Positions 1,620 through 25,352 of a stretch of 64,000 nt of DNA are shown here, piece after piece. Each line of letters begins with the position of its first letter. Positions within the stretch are counted from its first letter, which is position 1. The position numbers were made by a program, and so were the translations under genes. The stretch spans positions 9,313 through 73,312 of the IMG/VR virus record IMGVR_UViG_2791355157_000004, one strand, 5' to 3'. The notes under the pieces are model-generated. The model saw only the letters and a program-made list of their open reading frames with translations, was not told the origin of the DNA and did not search any database. This DNA comes from a virus (taxonomy: Duplodnaviria > Caudoviricetes).

Positions 1620-1871
1620 TTAGTCGGTGATGCGGCCGAGGATACGTGCGACGTTATAGTCGGTATTCAGTTCGGTCTCGATCTCCGCGTCGGTCTTGCC
1701 GAACAGCGGGCATTTACCCATGTCACGTGAGCCATCCGGCTTGGCGTTTTCGCCGGTACAGCAGGTTGCACACTTCGGGTTCTTGGAGCAGAAATGCTTC
1801 TCCATTTCAGCCGGGATGGTTTTAATCAACTGGGTGATTTTGATCAGCTGCTCAATGCGTGTTAAGGCCAT
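1620..1871 (-). CDS. Cys-rich mini-protein (divergent Cys4 family member)
   Basis: FCSKNPKCATCC...KCPLFG. Confidence 0.65.
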   Translation of the reverse strand: MALTRIEQLIKITQLIKTIPAEMEKHFCSKNPKCATCCTGENAKPDGSRDMGKCPLFGKTDAEIETELNTDYNVARILGRITD

Positions 1872-2074
1872 GATTGTGTGTCTCCATAAATTGATAGTGG
1901 TGCAAATCGTGTAACGGGTGAGGCGCGAAAAGGACAGTTAGCACATTGAATCCCATGATGCTTACAGCTTTCCGGTAGGTCATTCAGCACTGCGCAAGGT
2001 TCCCACATCCTGCGAAATGCTGTGTCAGCTTCCAGCTGGTGGTGCATTAAATCCAGGATGGTTCCTATTTTCAA
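1862..2074 (-). CDS. Cys4 mini-protein
   Basis: MKIGTILDL...PC...SCKHHGIQCANCPF. Confidence 0.65.
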   Translation of the reverse strand: MKIGTILDLMHHQLEADTAFRRMWEPCAVLNDLPESCKHHGIQCANCPFRASPVTRFAPLSIYGDTQSWP

Positions 2075-2276
2075 CTACCACCTCTAGCGATCGTAGTAAC
2101 GGATCTTCTGCCGGCGAGAAGATGCCGGACAGCGGACAGGCTTTGCAGTAAATAAATTCACAGGAGTCCTCCCTGTCCTGTATCAGCGTACAGATCGGAT
2201 GCGCGTAAGCGCTCCCGCTCGGGCTGCCGTGATTGGCCACGTGTTTGATGGCCAGTAAAACATCAGAAGTTTTCAG
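2025..2276 (-). CDS. Cys4 mini-protein, probable CTG start
   Basis: AAGGAGG SD precedes CTG-AAA-ACT-TCT-GAT (MKTSDVLLAI); IC...SCEFIYCKACPL. Confidence 0.6.
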   Translation of the reverse strand: MKTSDVLLAIKHVANHGSPSGSAYAHPICTLIQDREDSCEFIYCKACPLSGIFSPAEDPLLRSLEVVVENRNHPGFNAPPAGS

Positions 2277-2312
2277 TGCCGCCTCCTTTATTTTTCGTTC
2301 AGGTCCGATCTA

Positions 2313-2332
2313 TACTGTACATACATACAGTA
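2313..2332 (+). promoter_or_regulatory. LexA (SOS) box overlapping the -10 element TATACT (2311-2316)
   Basis: TACTGTACATACATACAGTA fits CTG-N10-CAG and the Gammaproteobacterial consensus; 15 nt upstream of the umuD-like ATG. Confidence 0.88.
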
Positions 2333-2347
2333 AATGGACCGGAAATT

Positions 2348-2722
2348 ATGGGTTTCCCCTCACCAGCCACGGACTACGTTGAGCATCGAATTTCCCTCGA
2401 TGGGCTATGCAATACCCGTGCGCCTTCCGTCTACCTGTTTAAGGCAGGTGAGACGGTAATGCGCGCCGGGATCAGCAAAGGTTCTCTGCTCGTCGTTGAC
2501 AGCGCGATTACGCCATCAGACGGTAACGTGGTGGTGGCCATGATTGATGGAACATTTCGTGTGGCGCGTTACTGTACGCACCCGGCACCGTATCTGGAAG
2601 ATATGAATGTGCCGGGGCGTCGGCTCGCGACAGCAGGTGAGGATGTCATGCAGGGGGAGGAGACGATTTGTTTTGGCGTAGTCACCCACGCTCTGGGAGT
2701 GCTGCGGTCAGCCTACCAGTAA
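2348..2722 (+). CDS. umuD: UmuD'-like (HumD-type) S24 family protein
   Basis: Starts MGFPSPATDY, i.e. at the UmuD cleavage junction; GSLLVVD, GNVVVA and FGVVTH motifs; catalytic Ser and Lys not retained. Confidence 0.85.
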   Translation: MGFPSPATDYVEHRISLDGLCNTRAPSVYLFKAGETVMRAGISKGSLLVVDSAITPSDGNVVVAMIDGTFRVARYCTHPAPYLEDMNVPGRRLATAGEDVMQGEETICFGVVTHALGVLRSAYQ

Positions 2723-3031
2723 GCGGGCAATCGTGCGGACGGCTTCCAGCTCAGCCGGCGTGGCTTTGCCTTTAAGGGCTGCATTACGTGCTTTCCAATC
2801 CAGGCTTTTCACCTGGTCTGCCAGGGCGACGTTCGCCGGCGTGCCGGCGATCGCCACTTCCATCGGGTAACCCTTGATCTTGGTGGTGAGCGGGACGCAC
2901 ACCATCAGGTCGTGCTTATTATAGTAGGCCGGGCTGAGTACCAGCGCCGGTCTGCGGCCGGCCTGTTCGTGGCCAGCCTGCGGGTTGAAGTCCAGCCATA
3001 CGATATCGCCGGCTTCAGGGACAAATGCCAT
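2708..3031 (-). CDS. mazF: MazF/PemK endoribonuclease toxin
   Basis: GDIVWLDFNPQAGHEQAGRRPALVLSP, PLTTKIKGYP, LADQVKSLDW. Confidence 0.95.
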   Translation of the reverse strand: MAFVPEAGDIVWLDFNPQAGHEQAGRRPALVLSPAYYNKHDLMVCVPLTTKIKGYPMEVAIAGTPANVALADQVKSLDWKARNAALKGKATPAELEAVRTIARLLVG

Positions 3032-3282
3032 TACCAGATCTCCTTACCTACTTCGCCGAAGTCCTGCTCACCGTGACGGTTTTCAGGCGTGATGCGGCTC
3101 ACCAGGGCTTCCAGGGTGGGCTTAGCGCGTGCTGGTTCAATCACAAGGCGCGACACGTTAAAGGCATCCTTCTGGACGGTCACTTCGACTTCAGCGTCGA
3201 TACCGAGGTCCATCAGGTTCATGAGGTTAGTGGGGATGCGGACTGCAGGGCTGTTGCCCCAGCGCTTAATAGTCTGACGCAT
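3031..3282 (-). CDS. mazE: MazE/AbrB antitoxin
   Basis: KRWGNSPAVRIP N-terminus; ITPENRHGE..GKEIW C-terminus; 1-nt overlap with mazF. Confidence 0.93.
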   Translation of the reverse strand: MRQTIKRWGNSPAVRIPTNLMNLMDLGIDAEVEVTVQKDAFNVSRLVIEPARAKPTLEALVSRITPENRHGEQDFGEVGKEIW

Positions 3283-3299
3283 GATGCTTCTCCGTTTAT

Positions 3300-3356
3300 A
3301 CGTTTGTATAGACAGATTACTCTTTTTTGAGCAATGTATCTACATTAGTATCTACT
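3300..3356 (-). promoter_or_regulatory. mazEF promoter/operator region
   Basis: Repeated imperfect palindromes TGTATAGACA (3305), TGTATCTACA (3335) and GTATCTAC (3348), resembling MazE operators. Confidence 0.55.
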
Positions 3357-3372
3357 TTTCTGAATGGCAGCG

Positions 3373-4182
3373 TCACTCCACCAGCTCCGCGTCAGCGAGC
3401 TGCAGCACCGCCTTGGCATAGTCATTCCCCTGGTAGGAGACGTGATAGCCCTGGCAGTAGGTGCGCAGTCGCTTATCCACTTTGTGGGTGAGGTGGAAGC
3501 GGTTGCCCTCGTTCACCAGCAGGGCGAACGTGTGCATGCTGTCCTTCTCAAAGCGTTCAAACGCCTCAACACGCTTGCGGTAGTCGCGGAAGCTTTCCCC
3601 GTCACGCGGCTTGTCGAGGTTCTTCCGCTTATTGCGGATAGTCCTGATCACCCGCTCATTGAGCGCCAGCGGCACCCGGTTAAACCGGTTGATGCTGTCG
3701 TAACAGAGGTCACCCTCGTGGTGGTTGTTCTTCAGGATGAGCGAATCACCGCGATCGTTAAGGTAGCCGCTGCCGCGATTACCGGTCACCTCAAGCGGTG
3801 GCACAATCATTGGCGGCAGGTACTGATACTGGTGCATCAGCTCCTTCACGTCGTTGCTGACATCCAGGTTAATGATGAAGTTCATCGTCTGCATGTCGAA
3901 GTTCACCAGCTCAGTGTTCGCGCAGATGTACTCCAGGTGTGCCGCGGTCTGCTGGTAGTCGCCGTCGAAAAAGCGCGCCAGGATGCCGATCAGCACGTTG
4001 GCCGGCGCCCGACGGTGAAGCACCATCTGAACCAGCAGCTCGATGACGAACCCTTCCGGCATAGCCAGGCTTTCGACGATCGCCATAACGGCGGTGTCGT
4101 TCTCAAACTCACGACGCAGCAGCGGCAGCGTCTGGTACCGCGCAAAGCGCTGTTCAATCAGTTTCTGGGTTTCGTATTTCAT
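3373..4182 (-). CDS. N4-like RNA polymerase II, subunit 1 (gp15-like)
   Basis: 269 aa; YLPPMIVPP and HKVDKRLRTYCQGYHVSYQG (DxxGR-type motif). Confidence 0.92.
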   Translation of the reverse strand: MKYETQKLIEQRFARYQTLPLLRREFENDTAVMAIVESLAMPEGFVIELLVQMVLHRRAPANVLIGILARFFDGDYQQTAAHLEYICANTELVNFDMQTMNFIINLDVSNDVKELMHQYQYLPPMIVPPLEVTGNRGSGYLNDRGDSLILKNNHHEGDLCYDSINRFNRVPLALNERVIRTIRNKRKNLDKPRDGESFRDYRKRVEAFERFEKDSMHTFALLVNEGNRFHLTHKVDKRLRTYCQGYHVSYQGNDYAKAVLQLADAELVE

Positions 4183-4348
4183 AGGTGATGTCCCTCAGAA
4201 GGTGTTTATCTTTATCAGGCGTGCAGTCGAACGGACAGTTGCGGCAGGCGATTGCCCCGCACCTGATACCGTTGCTGGCATCGCACAGTGGGTTATTTAG
4301 CGGATCGGTTGTGTCGTTGATGAGACACAGCAGGGTCGAGAGTTTCAT
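4154..4348 (-). CDS. Cys4 mini-protein
   Basis: MKLSTLL...LCDASNGIRCGAIACRNCPF. Confidence 0.7.
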   Translation of the reverse strand: MKLSTLLCLINDTTDPLNNPLCDASNGIRCGAIACRNCPFDCTPDKDKHLLRDITYEIRNPETD

Positions 4349-4517
4349 TCAGCTTGTCCATGATGTGCGGCACACGTGACGACACGGCACCGCCGCTCAA
4401 CGGGCAGTTGATGCACTCGATGCCGGTACAGTCCAGCGCTGGGACATTACAGACAGGGTTGCCCGAGATGAGCAGTTCGCTATACGTGAACTCCACTAAC
4501 AGGGGTTTCAGTTTCAT
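4293..4517 (-). CDS. Cys4 mini-protein
   Basis: MKLKPLL...VCNVPALDCTGIECINCPL. Confidence 0.7.
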   Translation of the reverse strand: MKLKPLLVEFTYSELLISGNPVCNVPALDCTGIECINCPLSGGAVSSRVPHIMDKLNETLDPAVSHQRHNRSAK

Positions 4518-4680
4518 TGATCATCTGCCTTAGCAGGCTGTTACCTTCACGGGCGTAGTCGAGGGGACAGTCCTTACATTCAATGCCTTCACAGCCGGCG
4601 CTGATACACAGAGAGGAGGTGGTTACTGTCATTTCACTGCGGAGAGTGGTGAGCAGGATAGTCAACTTCAGCTGGTTCAA
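4480..4680 (-). CDS. Cys4 mini-protein
   Basis: TTG start overlapping the upstream stop; LKLTILL...LCISAGCEGIECKDCPL. Confidence 0.62.
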   Translation of the reverse strand: MNQLKLTILLTTLRSEMTVTTSSLCISAGCEGIECKDCPLDYAREGNSLLRQMINETETPVSGVHV

Positions 4681-4934
4681 ATGACATTGTCCAATAGCAG
4701 AATTTGCAGGATAGCGTCCCGCAGGTATCTGAACGGCTTCATGTCTACGTAGTAGAAATGGCTGTTGGTCAGCCGCTTTATCAGATGCAGGCGCTTCGGT
4801 GTGGACACACTCCATATGCGCGTACGACGGTCATAATGCACCTTGTACTCGAAGCCCTCCGGCTTCTCCTTAACGACATTTCCGGTCAAATCATTGCGAT
4901 CGCTGTTGAGCACGTGCAATACGGTTCTGTTCAT
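4677..4934 (-). CDS. early hypothetical protein (MNRTVLHVL...)
   Basis: GGAG SD; first gene after the hairpin promoter at 4971. Confidence 0.7.
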   Translation of the reverse strand: MNRTVLHVLNSDRNDLTGNVVKEKPEGFEYKVHYDRRTRIWSVSTPKRLHLIKRLTNSHFYYVDMKPFRYLRDAILQILLLDNVI

Positions 4935-4969
4935 ATTTGTCTCCGAAGTTAAGAAGGAAAAGGCAAACG

Positions 4970-4988
4970 CCAAAAGGGGCGAAGCCCC
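4970..4988 (-). promoter_or_regulatory. vRNAP hairpin promoter (+1 near 4971)
   Basis: Template (+) strand CC-AAAA-GGGGC-GAA-GCCCC matches the N4 architecture CC-N4-5bp stem-GNA loop. Confidence 0.85.
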
Positions 4989-5033
4989 GGGCGAGTAATT
5001 ATGCAAGACCTTCAGACAAAAACCAGATTATTC

Positions 5034-5279
5034 CTAATGGTCCGATGAGTTGATGTCTGTCATGGCACGGTGAAGATCGTGCGCCAGGTGGGCGGTGAGA
5101 TTTAACGGGCAGATACTGCAAAAGTGCAGGTGAATGTTGGTACCGGGTTCGCGGTGCTGGCCGATATTCAGCGCACAGACATTACCTGGCATCGACGAGC
5201 ACAGGTCACGCTGCTCACCGTCGCCGGTGTCGCCAGGCTGAAACACCTGGATGGTGGACAGCACGTCATGAAGCTTCAT
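5034..5279 (-). CDS. Cys4 mini-protein
   Basis: MKLHDVL...LCSSMPGNVC...HFCSICPL. Confidence 0.7.
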   Translation of the reverse strand: MKLHDVLSTIQVFQPGDTGDGEQRDLCSSMPGNVCALNIGQHREPGTNIHLHFCSICPLNLTAHLAHDLHRAMTDINSSDH

Positions 5280-5454
5280 GATAAAGCTCCCTGAACAGGC
5301 TGCCCTCACACTGCAACGGGCAGTTCTGGCACTGGATGTCCCTGCAGCTGATTTTGTTCATATCCCGGTCATGCAGGTACTGGCACAGCGACTGGTTGTG
5401 CTTGCCTGTCTCTACAGGCTGGCTGGTGGCGATCAGGACGTTACTGAGTTTCAT
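5266..5454 (-). CDS. Cys4 mini-protein
   Basis: MKLSNVL...LCQY...SCRDIQCQNCPL. Confidence 0.7.
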   Translation of the reverse strand: MKLSNVLIATSQPVETGKHNQSLCQYLHDRDMNKISCRDIQCQNCPLQCEGSLFRELYHEAS

Positions 5455-5666
5455 GGTTCACGCCCTGTCATTTCATCCAGGATGTGCGTTTGCGGCAGGT
5501 TAGCTGATCGTGCCTGTTTGCCGGCGGACAGCGGACAGTTATGACAGTAGACATGCGTGTGCAGCTCCCGATCGGTATCGCAGACGCTGATGTTGTGCGC
5601 GCTGCACAGGCTCTTCTGCTCAACGGTTTCAGTGTGGGTGAGGAACAGCAGATCCAGCAATTTCAC
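5451..5666 (-). CDS. Cys4 mini-protein
   Basis: MKLLDLL...LCSAHNISVC...VYCHNCPL. Confidence 0.7.
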   Translation of the reverse strand: MKLLDLLFLTHTETVEQKSLCSAHNISVCDTDRELHTHVYCHNCPLSAGKQARSANLPQTHILDEMTGREP

Positions 5667-5844
5667 GGTATTCCTCCAACTCGGCTTTGCTTAGCAGGCA
5701 GATACTGGCGTCCGGGCAATAGAGTATTGCCTGTTTGTGTATTCCAATCAGTGATTTTGCCTCGGCCGCGTTCGGCATGTTGCGATCGTCGGACCGCATC
5801 TGTTCGCGAAGGGTGATGGCGTGTTGAATGAGGGTAGGGCGCAT
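5629..5844 (-). CDS. hypothetical protein
   Basis: GGAG SD; co-oriented with neighbours. Confidence 0.6.
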   Translation of the reverse strand: MRPTLIQHAITLREQMRSDDRNMPNAAEAKSLIGIHKQAILYCPDASICLLSKAELEEYREIAGSAVPHPH

Positions 5845-5868
5845 GGGTGATCTCCGGATTCTTCAGGC

Positions 5869-5901
5869 AAAAAGAAAGCCCGACGAGTTTACTCGTCAGG
5901 C
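5869..5901 (-). terminator. rho-independent terminator
   Basis: GCCTGACGAG-TAAA-CTCGTCGGGC followed by TTTCTTTTT. Confidence 0.7.
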
Positions 5902-6952
5902 ATCATCTTGAGAATCGTGGCGATCAGTTCAGGTGGCAGTGACTGGCTGTAGTAAATCCGCCAGTTCAGCTTCAGGCAGAGCTGCGTATCGGCATCACGG
6001 AACATGAGCCTGAGAATGCTTGCGGCATGTCTTTCCGGCACTGTGCCAATTCCTTCATCAGGGGAACAAGTGCGCCCAGATACACATCTTCCAGCTGCTC
6101 AGAAACGTGCATGTTGATAGCCCACATGGCCACAGCATACTCTGCTGAGTGCATCTGACTGATGATTTCTACCGTATCCATTGGTTTACCGGGTCGAGAG
6201 GGGTTGCCTGATGTTATAGCGCCGCAAGCGATAGAGATCAAACAGGACAATTCTGATTTTGGGTAAATGCTTCATTAAGAAGTACCACAAAATCAAAAAT
6301 TTGAGCATTTTCTAAACTGAGGCTGTCTGGGTTTTCGGTGGATTCCCATAGCAATTGCCAGACAGGACCTCCGGGTTGTAAGAGCATCGCCTGCACCAGA
6401 TGGCGCAAGGGCTCAGAAGGGGATTTCGTGAACGTCGTTGAGTTCATCGAGCAGCTGCCTTGACCGGACAAGCGTGGACGGTTGGAGACCCTTCAGCTGA
6501 AGTGCCCGGATTAGGGGCACCAGCCACAGCAGATCGTAAAGCAGGATAAAGAGTTTATCGTTATGTGATGGCGATCTCATTTTGGCCTTCTCTGATGTGT
6601 CGCAGCTGGTGGGCCAGATTGTTACAGACGGTTGGTGAGACCTGGCTGGTTGCGCTGCCCTGAGACAAGATCTTTTCCCAGAACAGCTCCCAGCACCACG
6701 GGTACATGAGCATGAAGATCTCACGTGCCGTAATCGTCTGTGATGATAACGCCGGCTGACCGGCCGCGGAGTGTAGTTTTTCCACAGATTTCCCTCGCAA
6801 GTTTCGGTGCGTCTTGAATATCAAGACCGCGAAACTGCCTGAGGCGTCTGCCAAAGGTCTGGCCCTTGGCTGCCCATTGCAGTTCGCTGTAAACAGCGAG
6901 CCACGAGGTCGGGTCGGAGTGGAGCGTGGAAATTATATCGGAGATGAGGTTT

Positions 6953-7105: not shown

Positions 7106-8253
7106 GGGTGTGCCCCCATGTGTTTCACCAGGATCATGCTGCGCAGGTTAATGCTTCTGGTGGGCTGAGGTGAGCAGACTGAGCGCTGCATCATTTCCCA
7201 GACTTCGTTGCGGGCTATCGCCGTCAGCCACAGTTCGTGGAGTAGCAGGTTCAGCATCTTCTATGGCCTCGATCAGAGTCTGCATAAGCGGAAAACACAG
7301 GCTGAATTGCCTGTCTATATCGGGCAGCGACTGGGTGATCCCAACCCATGCGCGAGCGTGACAGCTCAACAGCCAGATGACGTTTACCGCGTGCATATGC
7401 ACTCCTTAATGGTTTTCAGTTCTCACAGCGTGAAGCTGTTTCAGTATGGTGTAGGCATCAAAGTCTGCCTCGTGTTGCCCGAATATGCCAGTGGCAGCAT
7501 CCGGGCTATGGCCGTCGTGAGTCAGCCAGTGCATGAAGGTCTGGCCCCGCGCTTCCGCGAAGAACCAGAGCACATCAGTGGTAGACATAGACTATCCCGT
7601 TGCATAAATGCTTCCAGTCACTCATGGCCATCATCAGCTGATCAGCGCATGGCAGGTAATCCGCGAACGGGTACGCCGGCGCTTTCTCATAGAAGCTGGT
7701 GACGATCGCCTGAGGGACGTTCAGGTCATTCGTGTTGTTGATGATTTCGTTCATGATGTCGGCAATGCGCACGGGTGCAGCTCCATATCCTGAGGGGTGA
7801 CCCGTAGCATATGCCGAATTGCGATGAACCAGGATTAGGCCGATTCCGAAAGTATTACCTCACACATATTACGTAATACTTATTCACGCCTGACGATGTA
7901 GGGCACGCCAGGCAGAAATTCTATCTGCACAGCAGCTTCGAGCTCCGTGGCATAAGGCTTGGCCTCATTCTCGGTACCGAAGCGTGGTGTGTTATCGGCA
8001 TCAAAGCCGGTAAACCACAGACCATCCGCTCTGCGTTTGATGTAATAGTTTCCGGTGTCAAACACGATTGCTCCTTATGTACGAAAACAGTTCCGGGTAA
8101 ATGGCGATCGCCGTCCTGGCAGCCTCGACCTGATCACCTGTATCAGGGAACAGGGTCTCCAGAACAATGCCCAGGCGATTCCACATATTCATATCATGCA
8201 CGAAGTACAGCATGGGCAGGATGATACCCGCCTTCCATTCGAACCCGTGCTGA

Positions 8254-9129: not shown

Positions 9130-9477
9130 TCAGAAATGCAGAACACCCTGCGCGACAGGGCTGGGCATGGCCATAAGGCTGCTCAGGTCTGCGCTCTCAA
9201 AATCAGGGGCATCTTTATCCAGCTCGTACTGGGTGCGGATGTCATTGAGGATGGCACGGTTGAGTTTGATGGCGCTCAGATCGCGCAGTGCCATGATAAT
9301 GGCCGATACCGGCTGGATACGTCCTGGCTCTTTCACTCCCCGCAGCAGCACACGCGAATCTTCTAAGAAGCGCGCTCGCAGTGCCGGGTCGGATTTGTGG
9401 CTCCAGATCATCTGACGGGTCAGTTTACGGCGGGTCCACATACGGCGGGCAAGGGCAGCCCGTGCAGTCATACACAT
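9130..9477 (-). CDS. N4 gp1-like early protein
   Basis: AGGAG SD; ARAALARRMWTRR...HKSDP...IQPVSAII resembles N4 gp1; synteny with gp2. Confidence 0.72.
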   Translation of the reverse strand: MCMTARAALARRMWTRRKLTRQMIWSHKSDPALRARFLEDSRVLLRGVKEPGRIQPVSAIIMALRDLSAIKLNRAILNDIRTQYELDKDAPDFESADLSSLMAMPSPVAQGVLHF

Positions 9478-14168: not shown

Positions 14169-14657
14169 TCAGATGATTGCGTTAAGTTTGGCGGTAAGCT
14201 TCAGAATAATATCGTTGAGCTCTTTGGCCGTATTGCCGTTGGTAACGTTACGCAGGGAACCGCACAGCTGGCTGATCAGGTCAGCGAGGTGCTGGCGCTC
14301 CTGCGCGCGCGCATAGTCTTCGCTTAACGAAGAATTAACAACTACTTTTTCTGGGGAATTGACTTCTGCCTCCGACTGCGCGCACGTGCTGACGTGTGTC
14401 ACCTGCCAGTCATCGGCGTGCATATCACCCTGGCTCGGCACCCAGGGGACGACGCTGCCCTGCGCGTTCTTCAGCGCGTAGTAGCTGCCGTACGGAACGA
14501 GGTTATCGGGGAAGTGGTCTTTGATCACCTCCATGCGTGCCGGGTAGTTGCCGGCGGGGACGAACCAGACAAACTGGCCCTTGCCGTTCCAGCCCTGGCG
14601 CTGGATAGCCTTGCCGTCTGCGGTACATGCACGCAGCGCTTCAGCGAAATTCATCAT
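14169..14657 (-). CDS. tad2: DUF2829 / Tad2-like nucleotide-sponge protein with C-terminal extension
   Basis: MNFAEAL...RQGWNGKGQFV...PWVPSQGDMHADDW is the DUF2829 signature. Confidence 0.8.
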   Translation of the reverse strand: MMNFAEALRACTADGKAIQRQGWNGKGQFVWFVPAGNYPARMEVIKDHFPDNLVPYGSYYALKNAQGSVVPWVPSQGDMHADDWQVTHVSTCAQSEAEVNSPEKVVVNSSLSEDYARAQERQHLADLISQLCGSLRNVTNGNTAKELNDIILKLTAKLNAII

Positions 14658-14902
14658 GGAACCGATTCCTTTTTTGGTTTTTGGGGGGGCGTGCTGGCCT
14701 TGTATTTGCGTTTGCCCATCATCTGCAGGCGCAGATCCTGGATAACGGCGATGGCGCACATCACTGGGTAGTGGCGGTAAAGCGCCAGCAAAGAATGCTC
14801 CAGCTCGGCCATGTTGCGGTGCATCCGCTTACGCACGCACTCTTCACCCGCGCAGTGGCCGATGAAGTACGCGAGGCACATCAATAGAATGGTGATGATC
14901 AT
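14654..14902 (-). CDS. hypothetical membrane-anchored protein
   Basis: Hydrophobic N-terminus; ATGA overlap with the next gene. Confidence 0.55.
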   Translation of the reverse strand: MIITILLMCLAYFIGHCAGEECVRKRMHRNMAELEHSLLALYRHYPVMCAIAVIQDLRLQMMGKRKYKASTPPQKPKKESVP

Positions 14903-16129: not shown

Positions 16130-16470
16130 TCCCATATTGTTACGCGGCGCTCCGACCCCTCGGGACCCGTGTATTTGATAGTGGTAGCTATCTGGGAAGG
16201 CACTGCATGTGGCGGTAAATCCGGGAAGAAACCCGCCGGCAATGCCCTCTCAGATAAATACGCCCCAATCCGGTAACAGAGAAGGGGCAGAACTCTGGTT
16301 TCCGCGCTTATCAGGCGCTTCCGCGTAACAGGCCACTGACCTGTGGTGACGAAAAATATCCGTAAGGAAATGGATTGCACAGCATCATCAGCAAGGCGGC
16401 ACCAGCGCTAATGCTAAAGGCGTCTCGGGGAAACGGCTTTCACCTTAGGGCCTGCTCAGAATGCCAATGC
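16130..16470 (-). ncRNA. candidate structured non-coding RNA
   Basis: No credible ORF; 18-bp stem 16189-16256 with G-U pairs on the minus strand; ends at the terminator. Confidence 0.35.
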
Positions 16471-16496
16471 GCAAAAGATGCGTCAATAATTATTTT

Positions 16497-16510
16497 TCGG
16501 ATTAATCTTA
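16497..16510. promoter_or_regulatory. palindromic operator-like site
   Basis: TCGGATTAATCTTA in the divergent region before the terminase operon. Confidence 0.5.
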
Positions 16511-16568
16511 TAGGATAGCATTTAGGTTTGTGCTTGTCGGACCGCAAGCACTCAAAAAGGAACCTGAG

Positions 16569-22597: not shown

Positions 22598-22682
22598 CGG
22601 CGATTATCTTTTGTCTATGAGATAATTCTGATTTTACGGGGGAATTTATTTCCCCCTGTTTTTGGGCACACGGGAGTCTGAC

Positions 22683-25352
22683 ATGACCACTCAAGTTCTA
22701 AAGCCTTTCTCGCAGCCCCGCCATAACACGGCGGTGGAGGTGAACAAGGAATCCATTGCCCGAAACTACGGAGTGAACACTGACGCGGTCGGTTACGCCA
22801 AAGTCGGTATGTCACTTGACGGGGTTCAGGTGCTCTATGACACAGACCTCCAGCGCTCCTATCCGCTGCCCGCAGGGGTCGTGGGTGGCGCGGTGGTGAC
22901 ATCGTATTCCGCAGGCCAACTGGCCTTTGCCTCCGGCAATACGGTGAAGGTTATCGATCTCAACGAGCTGTGCGTTCAGCGTGGTCTCTGGTTCATCCTC
23001 TACGGGTATGACTTCAGCTCGGGCGCCACGCTGCAGTATGCCAACGACGTGCTGGAATACTTCGACGAGTCCATCAAGGCATTCTCCTACTACCGCTGGG
23101 GCGGTGCGCTGCCGAAGGTCGTGAGCATGGACTCTGACCCGCTGAGCGACGACAACTGGATTGTGGTCGGTACCCAGGCGATCTCCTCTGCCCTCTCCGG
23201 CCCGACCGGTGCGTCACAGGTAGGCTTCGGTACCACGAACGTCTCTGCTGCGCTCCAGGATCTGCAGAAGCGCATGACGGTCATGGAAGAGTACCCGGAA
23301 CAAATCGAGGTACTGGAAGCGAACTCCGGCGATCACACCAACCGCCTGGTCACCCTGGAGAATTACAAGACCGGTCTGTCTGGTGCCGATGGCTTCAAGA
23401 ACATTGGCTGGGTCGCGAGCGTAGCAGCGCTGCGTAAGATTGAACCGATCGCTGATGGCCAGCTGATCCGCGTGCGTGCCTGGGAAGCCGGCTCGGTATT
23501 CGGTGGTGGCTGGTTCGTGCATGATGCCTCTGCGACAACAAACGCTGACGACGGTGGGTATTACATCGTGACGGCCGGTGGCAAACGCTGGCGGCGCGAA
23601 GTGAAGGTGAGCGAGCTGACCATCCTCGATTTTGGTGGCCAGGCACTCCCTACCTTCGACAACATGCCCGCTATCCTGCGCATGCACAACTTCATGCAGG
23701 CACAGCTGGCCACCTACAACATGGGTGTGCGCATTCCTGCCGGCAGCTACGGTCTCGGCTCCACGATTAACCTGGGCACGGCCGAGATCGGCGCATTCCA
23801 CCTCAGCGGCGAGCGGGCGAACTACGGGGTAATCCCGGCGACCAACCTGGTCCCCATCCTGAACAACGCCTCGGCCGCGTTCTTCACGATGAATGCCCGT
23901 CGTATGGAGATCAGCAACATCCGCCTGCTGAGCACCTCGGACAACGTCACCCCGTTCTACAAAAATATCTGTACCGGCGGGCAGTACGTGAACGTGCGCT
24001 GCTTCGTGGCCAACAACCATGCCGGCCGCATTTTCGATCTGCTGGACACCATCGACTGCCTGTTTGAGCAGGTGTATGCGTACCGCATCAAAGCGGCTTT
24101 CGCCTACTCCATCTGGTCAAACCGCGTAGACGGTTACTGGGACCACTCGACCGCGATCGAGATCCGCAATGCCAACTTCTCGGCCTGCACCGGTAAGTAC
24201 ACCCTCTATCTGCCACGCTGCGGTCAGTCGATGATGCGTAACGTCTGGTTCCAGAACTGTGAGTACCCCTTCGATATTTCCCAGGGTGGCTGGACGCTGG
24301 ATAACGTGTCGATGGAAAGCTGCACCCATAAGGGCAACACGCGCTACGCCAAGCTGCTCATTCTCAACATGAACGTGCAGGGTAACGGCCTGGATGACAG
24401 CATCACCGATACCGATCCGGCGTGGGATAAGACCGGTTTCAACAACGGTAACTATCCGTCCTGGGTCACCTCGGCGTACCAGCGTGGTTTTGCGCAGATC
24501 CAGCCATCAGCGCAGCAGCGTATCGGTGGTGCCGCTGAGCACTTCAAGTATTCGAACCTGCTCATCAACAACGCCACCAACCAGACCACCTGGTTTTGCA
24601 TTGGCTCCTTCTCCAGCCAGGGTCATGCCCACGGCTTTAAGCTGCGCATCATCGGAACCTCGGGCTGGAACAGTGCGGTGAACACCATTTACCGTCCGGA
24701 CCAGAGTAACTACGGCGGCGGCGAAGCGATTATCCGTGCGCAGATCAAAGCGAACTCCGCGGCGACGACCTCGATCGGCGAAGTCAGCTGGCACGGTGAA
24801 GGCGCCTGCCCAATCAAGGCGGTGAAGTACGTTCACTACTACAACACCATCACCGTCTACGTGCAGATGCAGCAGTACGCCTACTACGGCGCCGTGTTCG
24901 TGGAGACTGACGGTACCAGCCGACTGGAAGCAGGTATCCCCTTCTACGTCACGCCGAACCTGGCCTCCATTTCCGACACGGATATCGCTGCGGTGGCCAA
25001 CATCCGGGATGCCACCCGCCAGTGGTCTGTCAACGGCGGTGTGCAGAGTGGTTCGGGCTTTGGCATGAACCTGGATACCGGCGATCTGCTGCTGTACGCA
25101 CCGAACACGCCGAACAGCGAAGTGTTCAGCATCATGCTCAACGGCAACCAGCGCTATATCCGGACCTCCACCCGCGACTATGCGCAGACGTTTGCCCGCT
25201 TCACGCGAGCCAACCTGCCCAACGTCAACGATGGCGTGTACACCGTGGCGTTTGTGACCGATGCACCGTACACACCGTCGCTCCAGCTGGTCGCATCGAA
25301 CGGCTATGGCTGGTACTACGTCACCGACAACACCCTTGTTTCCCGCACCTGA
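22683..25352 (+). CDS. tail spike 2, AmsF/WceF-like EPS-modifying domain
   Basis: FSQPR..VEVNKESIARNYGV spike N-terminus; YRWGGALPKVV; DDGG..GGKRW; WDHSTAIE and PRCGQS motifs recalled from AmsF. Confidence 0.75.
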   Translation: MTTQVLKPFSQPRHNTAVEVNKESIARNYGVNTDAVGYAKVGMSLDGVQVLYDTDLQRSYPLPAGVVGGAVVTSYSAGQLAFASGNTVKVIDLNELCVQRGLWFILYGYDFSSGATLQYANDVLEYFDESIKAFSYYRWGGALPKVVSMDSDPLSDDNWIVVGTQAISSALSGPTGASQVGFGTTNVSAALQDLQKRMTVMEEYPEQIEVLEANSGDHTNRLVTLENYKTGLSGADGFKNIGWVASVAALRKIEPIADGQLIRVRAWEAGSVFGGGWFVHDASATTNADDGGYYIVTAGGKRWRREVKVSELTILDFGGQALPTFDNMPAILRMHNFMQAQLATYNMGVRIPAGSYGLGSTINLGTAEIGAFHLSGERANYGVIPATNLVPILNNASAAFFTMNARRMEISNIRLLSTSDNVTPFYKNICTGGQYVNVRCFVANNHAGRIFDLLDTIDCLFEQVYAYRIKAAFAYSIWSNRVDGYWDHSTAIEIRNANFSACTGKYTLYLPRCGQSMMRNVWFQNCEYPFDISQGGWTLDNVSMESCTHKGNTRYAKLLILNMNVQGNGLDDSITDTDPAWDKTGFNNGNYPSWVTSAYQRGFAQIQPSAQQRIGGAAEHFKYSNLLINNATNQTTWFCIGSFSSQGHAHGFKLRIIGTSGWNSAVNTIYRPDQSNYGGGEAIIRAQIKANSAATTSIGEVSWHGEGACPIKAVKYVHYYNTITVYVQMQQYAYYGAVFVETDGTSRLEAGIPFYVTPNLASISDTDIAAVANIRDATRQWSVNGGVQSGSGFGMNLDTGDLLLYAPNTPNSEVFSIMLNGNQRYIRTSTRDYAQTFARFTRANLPNVNDGVYTVAFVTDAPYTPSLQLVASNGYGWYYVTDNTLVSRT

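Follow-up and report, generated by a model that had tools for sequence, protein, structure and literature searches.

The DNA analysed here (the window) is a 64,000-nt stretch, positions 9,313 to 73,312, of the IMG/VR virus record IMGVR_UViG_2791355157_000004, a canonical N4-like genome of about 73 kb. Between the genes for its two RNAPII subunits lies a cassette of 1.1 kb, which comprises a near-consensus LexA box (2313-2332), a humD gene on the + strand (2348-2722) and an intact mazE-mazF operon on the - strand (3282-2708). The sequence-only reading had described this cassette as an SOS-regulated umuD'-like gene that converges, with a 15-nt overlap, on a mazEF pair with its own operator repeats, and every one of these elements was confirmed at its position. 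On the left, the cassette is flanked by the gene for the RNAPII large subunit (RNAP2L; 321-1529, -), which matches PF00940 (E 1e-15). A tblastn search with this subunit matched 457 phage records, of which Pantoea phage G19 was 94% identical and all others were below 60%, the listed hits being annotated as RNA polymerase or RNAP2 of N4-like phages. On the right lies the gene for the small subunit (RNAP2S; 3373-4182, -), which is 48% identical to gp028 of Erwinia phage S6 and 43% identical to the 'RNA polymerase subunit' of phage FSL SP-058. Both subunits are homologous to the two 'RNA polymerase' genes of S6, a member of the Schitoviridae, and with the 3,489-aa virion RNA polymerase (phrog_2206, E 0 over residues 36-3487) the genome has the characteristic polymerases of this family. 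It additionally encodes TerL, portal, major head protein, DNA polymerase, primase, SSB, holin and endolysin.

Further small genes on the - strand lie between RNAP2L and the cassette. An 83-aa gene (orf83; 1620-1871) is 37-42% identical to the ORFs between the RNAPII genes of S6 and FSL SP-058, and also matches phrog_22821 (E 3e-14). Two ORFs with a C-x2-C-P-[LF] motif, orf70 (1862-2074) and orf71 (2025 to about 2276), follow directly downstream of the cassette. As inferred from the sequences, orf71 probably starts at a CTG (2276-2274), where L175, a divergent relative with an RNAP2L of 81% identity, has an ATG. The counterparts of the 83-aa gene and of the two Cys-motif ORFs in L175 are 83% and 51-52% identical, respectively.

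A divergent intergenic region of 71 bp (2277-2347) separates orf71 from humD and holds a candidate -10 element of humD (TATACT, 2311-2316). The putative LexA box within this region, TACTGTACATACATACAGTA, has 2 mismatches to the 20-mer consensus and its CTGT starts 33 nt before the ATG of humD. It is the only match with up to 3 mismatches in the window, whereas none of 100 shuffled sequences yielded any match, and it is also the only site with up to 4 mismatches in the whole 73-kb genome, the next best site having 5. The same CTGT-N8-ACAG occurs upstream of 35 of 120 HumD-family genes, and in 32 of those 35 it lies at -29 to -38. Moreover, TATACTGTA...TACAGT is invariant across the window, G19, L175, an Erwinia tasmaniensis prophage locus and an IMG/VR contig, while the flanks vary. 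LexA binding is, however, inferred from sequence alone, and a scan with the consensus promoter found no sigma-70 site at threshold in front of humD.

The humD gene is the only + strand gene among its neighbours and encodes a protein of 124 aa that matches Pfam Peptidase_S24 (E 2e-9), phrog_811 (E 2e-37) and structures of UmuD/UmuD' (E 8e-21 to 1e-19; homology of the S24 fold to E. coli UmuD', PDB 1UMU, 1AY9 and 8GMT, was found at E 8e-21 to 1.7e-15). It passes the NCBIfam model of the HumD family (NF051876) with 130 bits against a cut-off of 120, but stays below the cut-off of the UmuD model (NF007621; 77 against 110). Residue G2 aligns to G25 of UmuD, so that the protein starts at the cleavage product and lacks the first 24 residues and the cleavage site, and all 20 aligned family members start with MGFPSPA. 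As T36 and A73 are located at the positions of UmuD S60 and K97, the Ser-Lys dyad of a self-cleaving S24 peptidase is absent. As in E. coli umuDC, a LexA box lies in the promoter region, but no umuC lies beside the gene. With regard to potential host partners, UmuC-type DUF4113 ORFs were present in five of five Pantoea and Erwinia genomes searched. Of the 93 phage records holding a HumD homologue 60 were listed, and all of these except G19 are temperate phages or phage-plasmids, such as HK639, N15, P1, P7, SJ46, D6 and phiKO2.

The mazF gene (2708-3031, -) overlaps humD tail to tail over 2708-2722 (15 nt) and encodes 107 aa. The protein matches PF02452 (E 6e-25, 88 bits) and E. coli MazF (E 3e-32), and passes the NCBIfam MazF equivalog (NF007386) with 151.8 bits against a cut-off of 120. 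The residues aligned to the catalytic R29 and T52 of E. coli MazF are kept. It is 76-78% identical to chromosomal MazF proteins of Pantoea, including P. agglomerans, which were found in the protein database, whereas a search of five Erwiniaceae genomes yielded only weak hits (35-39%) in two of them. Among 43 phage records with a MazF match only G19 is close, the other listed records being phages of Gram-positive hosts at 31-47% identity and a few 'Bacteriophage sp.' records from faecal samples. The mazE gene (3031-3282, -) precedes mazF, overlaps it by 1 nt and encodes 83 aa that match PF04014 (E 1.5e-6; 28.5 against a cut-off of 24.7). It aligns end to end with E. coli MazE (E 4e-17), including the final Trp of the acidic C-tail, although its NCBIfam MazE score of 69.6 bits is below the cut-off of 113. 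The region upstream of mazE (3283-3372) contains two direct repeats, GTATCTACATT and GTATCTACTTT, at 3336-3358 and 12 nt apart, which are a candidate operator. Here, GTAGATAC-N4-GT(A/T)GATACATT is invariant between the window and L175, while the surrounding sequence differs. Neither a terminator-like site separating this region from RNAP2S nor a sigma-70 promoter in front of mazE was found. An avoidance of ACA, examined as a possible trace of MazF activity, was not apparent either, as its observed/expected ratio of 0.80-0.82 ranks 8-14 of 64 trinucleotides in the three transcription blocks, which is unremarkable, although the cleavage site of this MazF is not known.

Several comparisons show that the cassette is old and under selection. 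Between the window and G19, four of four nucleotide changes in humD and six of six in mazE are synonymous, leaving both proteins 100% identical. MazF is less constrained than its neighbours, with 17 nucleotide and 9 amino-acid differences, 11 of them within 2775-2809. In L175, RNAP2L is followed by orf83, orf70, orf71, the LexA box and a HumD (56%) converging on MazF (78.5%) and MazE (65%), hence the same cassette is kept at the same site. The five mazF-linked HumDs form one clade (SH-aLRT 91). Of 240 HumD loci examined (80 each from GTDB, IMG/VR and metagenomes, with some contigs filed twice), only L175 had mazEF or RNAP2L within the fetched flanks. A blastn search for distant matches to 2250-3400 did not find the cassette as a unit on plasmids, but only pieces of mazF at 65-73% identity in 70 records, none of which covered at least 80% of the query.

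As the sequence-only reading had suggested looking for maintenance genes elsewhere, the whole genome was searched. A plasmid-type parA together with a gene for a ribbon-helix-helix (RHH) partner was found 5.3 kb away, outside the window, on the + strand (5697-6576 of the full record, G000:C1). The 214-aa ParA lacks an N-terminal DNA-binding domain, carries the deviant Walker A motif KGGAAKT and matches phrog_164 (E 3e-32) as well as Pfam AAA_31, MipZ, CbiA and VirC1. It matches 2,960 plasmid records, the best with 72-77% identity in plasmids of Rahnella, Sodalis, Yersinia and Erwinia, although its score for the NCBIfam ParA_partition model (115) is below the cut-off of 180. The partner of 86 aa, whose gene overlaps the end of parA, is 53-64% identical to the gene directly after that parA on the same plasmids, annotated as RHH/CopG, and matches the Arc-like phrog_2639 (E 7e-5). 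The nearest phage homologues of ParA are in phage-plasmids: D6 at 43%, then phiSG1, VP882 and SSU5; the RHH partner and orf61 of D6 showed no similarity. The architecture is that of a type Ib partition system, as in ParF/ParG. Three TCACAYTT repeats lie upstream (C1:5637-5667) and a 25-nt inverted repeat lies at C1:6579-6629, which are no more than candidates for centromere or operator sites. No sigma-70 promoter was found in front of parA. Compared with G19, parA and the RHH gene exhibit three and two changes, respectively, so that all 15 substitutions in humD, mazE, parA and the RHH gene are synonymous.

In contrast, no tyrosine integrase (PF00589) or serine recombinase (PF00239) was found in the 73-kb genome, while the control searches matched in 14 and 13 of 14 genomes. 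HTH_3, Rep_3, IncFII RepA and ParB_N matches were likewise absent and the only S24 protein is HumD. On this basis neither the replicon nor the immunity repressor of phage-plasmids such as P1, N15 and SSU5 was found, but only these families were searched and many small ORFs have no assigned function.

With respect to its occurrence, the phage is a separate contig in one run (X1) holding 5.08 Mb of contigs in 2,352 records. There, it is a single, circularly permuted record of 73,132 bases with 0 differences, which runs across the start of the IMG/VR record. Eight such runs hold 100% of the sampled sequence words, but they come from two studies of one year and may be the source of the virus record itself, phage preparations or phage-challenged cultures. 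Moreover, contigs give no copy number, and a circular assembly is also what the terminal repeats of a linear virion genome, which N4-type genomes have, produce. Relatives from a surface metagenome, a plant metagenome and an organism listed as 'organism B' all cover both parA and the cassette, and further occurrences were in tobacco metagenomes. HumD, MazF and MazE homologues of a sister phage lie on a 73,671-bp contig of an NCBI Pantoea eucrina assembly. No RNA dataset was listed among those containing the sequence. RNAP2L was not found in 401 genomes sampled from the host family, a set which contained no positive control. G19 itself was deposited as a phage from sewage with P. agglomerans as host.

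The closest counterpart is the phage-plasmid P1, whose record annotates a LexA site 20 bp before humD, notes that HumD complements E. coli UmuD' and shows phd-doc directly after humD, with a partition system elsewhere on the replicon. This analogy is closer than the sequence-only reading had stated. In the genome studied here, however, the toxin-antitoxin pair is MazEF instead of Phd/Doc, the genes converge instead of running in one direction, and HumD is only 42% identical to that of P1, which keeps Ser and Lys where Thr and Ala are found here. The partition pair is a small ParA plus RHH, and the carrier is an N4-like podovirus without a detected repressor or Rep. Compared with chromosomal mazEF of E. 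coli and Pantoea, the order of the genes and their 1-nt overlap are the same, but the operon sits in the early region of a virulent-type phage. A precedent for persistence is the N4-like phage Ab09, which is maintained as a pseudolysogen in Pseudomonas aeruginosa through repeated colony passages without integration (PMC6467409); no par, TA or humD genes are mentioned in the sections consulted. Integrase-, transposase- or DGR-bearing N4-like genomes have been taken to imply a non-lytic lifestyle in Schitoviridae (PMC10654107), yet UmuD and LexA do not occur in the main text of that study, whose supplementary tables may list this or related genomes. Literature searches yielded no paper on phage G19 with Pantoea and, among the top-listed results, nothing relevant on Schitoviridae with MazF, UmuD, ParA or toxin-antitoxin systems.

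Taken together, it appears about as likely as not that these modules stabilise a non-integrated episomal carrier state, either pseudolysogeny or a plasmid-prophage state, alongside normal lytic growth. In this view, the cassette consists of two old, selected accessory modules in a clade of Pantoea N4-like phages. The LexA-repressed humD provides a ready-cleaved UmuD', which on SOS induction would join the UmuC of the host to form a Pol V-type lesion-bypass polymerase, and mazEF is an autoregulated pair taken from a Pantoea-type chromosome. Together with the ParA/RHH pair, they would constitute the functional set of P1, namely partition, addiction and a LexA-controlled HumD. While the rest of an N4-type genome is read by phage RNA polymerases, the three modules have their own regulatory sites and would be read by host RNA polymerase, making them the active genes in a cell where the lytic programme is not running. 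ParA/RHH would spread genome copies to daughter cells, MazEF would kill or arrest cells that lose the genome, and HumD would help host and episome to tolerate DNA damage. The identity of the genes, their position, conservation and purifying selection, the origin of the modules and the presence of the genome as a separate contig in bacterial-sized assemblies rest directly on the analysis, whereas LexA binding, the HumD-UmuC partnership and complementation of UmuD', autoregulation, post-segregational killing (from the behaviour of the family only), segregation, transcription by host RNA polymerase and the carrier state itself are inferred. No maintenance or immunity gene beyond the par pair was found, and how the lytic genes would be silenced and how the episome would replicate is not explained by any gene found. 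The genome also has a full lytic kit, and each module has a plausible use in a purely lytic cycle as well. The proposal of the sequence-only reading that the phage may persist as a plasmid or prophage is therefore supported in part: a partition pair is present, the genome is a separate contig and the cassette is not a decaying recent insertion, but neither integration nor a repressor or plasmid replicon is supported.

The main alternative, which is possible but less likely, is that the phage is strictly lytic and that each module is a moron serving productive infection. MazE, made early by read-through from the RNAPII gene, might act as a decoy antitoxin that blocks abortive infection by the host's own MazF, with mazF being retained only through operon linkage. 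HumD might speed Pol V-type bypass of UV lesions in phage DNA in SOS-induced leaf-surface hosts, as in Weigle reactivation, and ParA/RHH might position replicating phage DNA or have another role. The similarity of phage and host MazF makes cross-neutralisation conceivable, and this idea also fits with the orientation of mazEF along the early genes without a terminator-like site upstream, with MazE being perfectly conserved while MazF varies, with the occurrence of relatives in plant, tobacco and surface metagenomes and with the lack of a detected repressor, integrase or Rep. The phage also carries a Tad2-like anti-Thoeris gene and thus does collect counter-defence genes. However, a partition ATPase and its RHH partner, under purifying selection and with 72-77% identity to plasmid genes, have no evident use without cell division. 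An antitoxin alone would suffice as a decoy, yet mazF is intact in the window, G19, L175 and the P. eucrina contig. Furthermore, humD lies antisense to the early transcription unit, so it is poorly placed for expression during the lytic programme, and among the rows listed HumD and this ParA otherwise occur only in temperate phages and phage-plasmids.

It is unlikely that the modules are merely selfish passengers, although TA and par modules are typical mobile cargo that keep themselves in any replicon and the region between the RNAPII genes accepts insertions, as L175 also carries an HNH-like ORF there and relatives hold two to three unrelated small ORFs. Against this stand the exclusively synonymous substitutions in humD, mazE, parA and the RHH gene, the retention of the cassette at the same site across a divergence of 81% RNAP2L identity, the conserved regulatory motifs and, as an inference, the packaging limits of a 73-kb podovirus, which should purge useless DNA. 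Integration as a classical prophage is very improbable, for even though integrase-bearing N4-like genomes and proviruses have been reported from data mining (PMC10654107), the complete genome lacks PF00589 and PF00239 matches, the phage in run X1 is not joined to other DNA over the 20 kb examined and none of the 401 family genomes held RNAP2L.

A more far-reaching and doubtful possibility is that this Pantoea clade of Schitoviridae consists of true phage-plasmids. An N4-type genome would then be silent by default in any cell lacking the virion-delivered RNA polymerase, because its early and middle promoters are not read by host polymerase, and would be kept as a low-copy episome by ParA/RHH and MazEF addiction, with LexA-controlled HumD, and perhaps SOS-driven antisense interference with mazEF, linking it to host DNA damage. 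That would be a temperate-like lifestyle built without integrase or a CI-type repressor.

N4-like phages are treated as strictly virulent and are favoured for biocontrol and therapy for that reason. A clade carrying the P1-style set of partition, addiction and SOS-controlled HumD genes would show a route by which a virulent-type phage gains plasmid-like persistence without integrase, and would give a molecular handle on pseudolysogeny, which is poorly understood. The question is directly testable, since a cultured relative, G19, and its host exist. Phages of this clade would then not be safe 'obligately lytic' biocontrol agents for Pantoea or Erwinia.

The virus record of 73,312 bp, of which bases 9313–73312 form the window, has ends that repeat exactly for 149 bp. 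The early (−) and late (+) gene blocks diverge at about 16380–16530 of the window. This is probably the true end of the linear genome, so that the 149-bp end repeat of the record looks like an assembly overlap of a circularized graph. The genome is a canonical N4-like one. It encodes a virion RNA polymerase of 3,489 aa (phrog_2206, E 0), the two RNAPII subunits, terminase, portal, major head protein, tail spikes, holin and endolysin, as well as DNA polymerase, primase, helicase, SSB, exonuclease and a RusA-like resolvase. One of the tail spikes (22662–25352, +) contains an EPS-depolymerase domain (phrog_4250, E 1e-183), and a 196-aa ORF in the early region (14172–14759, −) has a Tad2-like (Thoeris anti-defence 2) domain (PF11195, E 2e-21), making it a counter-defence gene. 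The only close relative among 50,697 phage records is Pantoea phage G19, with 97.7% nucleotide identity over the region, while the other 456 records with the large RNAPII subunit gene (RNAP2L) are below 60% protein identity.

The small (RNAP2S; 3373–4182, −) and large (321–1529, −) RNAPII subunit genes enclose three small minus-strand ORFs, of which one (orf83) is conserved at the same place in phages S6 and FSL SP-058, and a cassette of 1.1 kb at about 2277–3372. Eight tandem small ORFs (about 60–110 aa) within 1862–5690 (−), which flank the RNAP2S gene and the cassette, share a C-x2-C-P-[LF] motif, and many of them begin with MKLxxLL. This motif occurs 0 times in the plus-strand frames, and no family was assigned to these ORFs. 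One of the small ORFs, orf71, probably starts at a CTG (2274–2276, −) preceded by GGAGG, and its counterpart in L175, a metagenome contig of 3,263 bp from a more distant relative, has ATG at the aligned place.

The cassette itself consists of a LexA box predicted from sequence (2313–2332), humD (2348–2722, +), mazF (2708–3031, −), mazE (3031–3282, −) and a 90-bp upstream region with two direct repeats. The observation made in the sequence-only reading was thus confirmed, including the tail-to-tail overlap of 15 nt. The LexA box has two mismatches to the consensus and is the only match with up to three mismatches in the window (0 of 100 shuffles gave a match) and the only site better than five mismatches in the genome. 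Two further CTGT-N8-ACAG sites (2178–2193 and 8138–8153) share CTGTATCAG. Three such sites in the window compare with 1.1 expected, and 9 of 100 shuffles reached three. These two sites are G + C-rich in the middle and probably arise by chance.

HumD aligns with UmuD from Gly25 onward and is therefore the ready-cleaved UmuD′ form. It passes the HumD equivalog model of NCBI and fails the UmuD model. The self-cleavage dyad is gone, with Thr at S60 and Ala at K97, whereas P1 HumD keeps Ser and Lys. Across 20 family members these two columns vary, while MGFPSPA at the start and FGV near the end are invariant. MazF and MazE are close homologs of the chromosomal pair of E. coli. The nearest relatives of MazF outside this phage clade are chromosomal proteins of Pantoea, including P. 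agglomerans, with 76–78% identity, and the pair was most likely captured from a host-type chromosome.

The cassette is not a decaying insertion. In comparison to G19, all four substitutions in humD and all six in mazE are synonymous. mazF exhibits 17 substitutions and nine amino-acid changes. However, 11 of the 17 differences fall within 35 nt (2775–2809), and at these residues G19 resembles L175, which suggests a recombination patch, possibly with another mazF allele. L175 shows the same order, with RNAP2L (81% identical), an extra HNH-like ORF, orf83 (83%), orf70 and orf71, a LexA box at −32, and HumD (56%) converging with a 12-nt overlap on MazF (78.5%) and MazE (65%). The extra ORF, a 191-aa HNH/AP2-like one between RNAP2L and orf83 (L175:705–1280, −), shows that the region between the RNAPII subunit genes accepts insertions. 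The TATACTGTA...TACAGT core is invariant in these phages and also in prophage-borne relatives, while the flanks vary, and the GTAGATAC repeats before mazE are likewise invariant. The five HumDs that are linked to mazF form one clade (SH-aLRT 91), which fits a single old acquisition. The LexA box came with the gene: 35 of 120 HumD-family loci have an exact CTGT-N8-ACAG upstream, and in 32 of those 35 it lies at −29 to −38. The pairing of humD with mazEF, in turn, is specific to this phage clade, as it occurs in one of 240 other HumD loci, and that one is L175.

The search for maintenance genes elsewhere in the genome, which had been proposed beforehand as a test of persistence, yielded a plasmid-type parA with an RHH partner outside the window, at C1:5697–6576 (+) of the complete genome (G000), 2,737–3,616 bases before window base 1. 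The first gene (5697–6341, +) encodes a ParA-type ATPase of 214 aa, which matches phrog_164 (E 3e-32) and Pfam AAA_31, MipZ, CbiA and VirC1, and carries the Walker A motif KGGAAKT. It is followed by an overlapping ORF of 86 aa (6316–6576), which hits an Arc-like RHH family. Both are 100% identical in protein to G19, with three and two synonymous changes, respectively. Three TCACAYTT repeats lie upstream (C1:5637–5667), and an inverted repeat of 25 nt lies downstream (C1:6579–6629). ParA matches 2,960 plasmid records, best with 72–77% on plasmids of Rahnella, Sodalis, Yersinia and Erwinia. The small ORF matches the gene immediately after that ParA on the same plasmids, annotated as RHH/CopG. 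Among phages, its nearest homologs are in phage-plasmids, namely D6, phiSG1, VP882 and SSU5. Like humD, this pair runs against the direction of its neighbors. On a conjugative plasmid of Erwinia amylovora (NZ_HG813238, 1414–3920) the closest-type parA-RHH pair lies directly after umuC, which links Pol V genes and this par module on plasmids of the host family. In contrast, no integrase, resolvase, HTH_3, Rep_3, IncFII RepA or ParB_N could be found in the complete genome.

All sampled words of the record were found in eight runs of one organism, which stem from two studies of the same year, comprise about 6 Mb each and are possible sources of the record itself. In the one run examined in detail (X1), with 5.08 Mb of contigs in 2,352 records, the phage is one record of 73,132 bases, which is identical over 20 kb, circularly permuted relative to the virus record and not joined to other DNA there. 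This fits a free replicon in a bacterial culture, but it also fits a phage preparation or a phage-challenged culture, and circular assembly is expected from terminal repeats as well. Independent support comes from an assembly of Pantoea eucrina at NCBI, in which homologs of HumD, MazF and MazE all lie on one contig of 73,671 bp. They are 85–87% identical to those of L175 and 56–78% identical to those of the window, and that this contig is N4-like is inferred from its size and from L175. Relatives in surface and plant metagenomes and in an organism coded as 'organism B' cover both parA and the cassette. RNAP2L was not found in 401 sampled genomes of the host family.

Phage P1 has the same triad. 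Its record annotates a LexA site 20 bp before humD (noted there as complementing UmuD′), followed directly by phd-doc, and it has a par system. In the phage studied here the same functions were assembled from different parts. We propose that these modules are read by host RNA polymerase, while the rest of the N4-type genome depends on phage polymerases, as is established for N4. In cells where the lytic program is not running, ParA/RHH would distribute genome copies to daughter cells, MazEF would penalize loss of the genome, and HumD, released from LexA on DNA damage, would pair with host UmuC. UmuC-type ORFs are present in five of five Erwiniaceae genomes searched. All of these functional steps, from host transcription and LexA control to partition, addiction and the partnership with UmuC, are inferred, and the missing repressor and replicon are the main gaps in this view. 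Pseudolysogeny is documented for the N4-like phage Ab09 (PMC6467409), and non-lytic lifestyles have been proposed for other N4-like genomes on the basis of integrases (PMC10654107). As humD and mazF converge without a clear terminator, it might also be speculated that SOS-driven transcription of humD interferes with mazEF expression.

The main alternative is a strictly lytic phage whose modules serve infection, with MazE as a decoy against the 76–78% identical host MazF, HumD for the bypass of UV lesions in a leaf-surface setting and ParA for something else. This would explain the conserved MazE, the variable MazF and the lack of a repressor, yet it leaves a selected partition pair and an intact toxin unexplained. 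The ideas that the modules are selfish passengers or that the phage integrates are weaker.

The suggestion of the sequence-only reading that this phage persists as a plasmid or prophage is therefore only partly supported, as integration is not supported. Plasmid-like persistence, however, is now backed by a partition module, by conservation and by occurrence in bacterial-sized assemblies. Whereas maintenance sets of this style are already known from phage-plasmids, no paper describing one on a Schitoviridae genome was found, and it is such a set that this N4-like genome carries.
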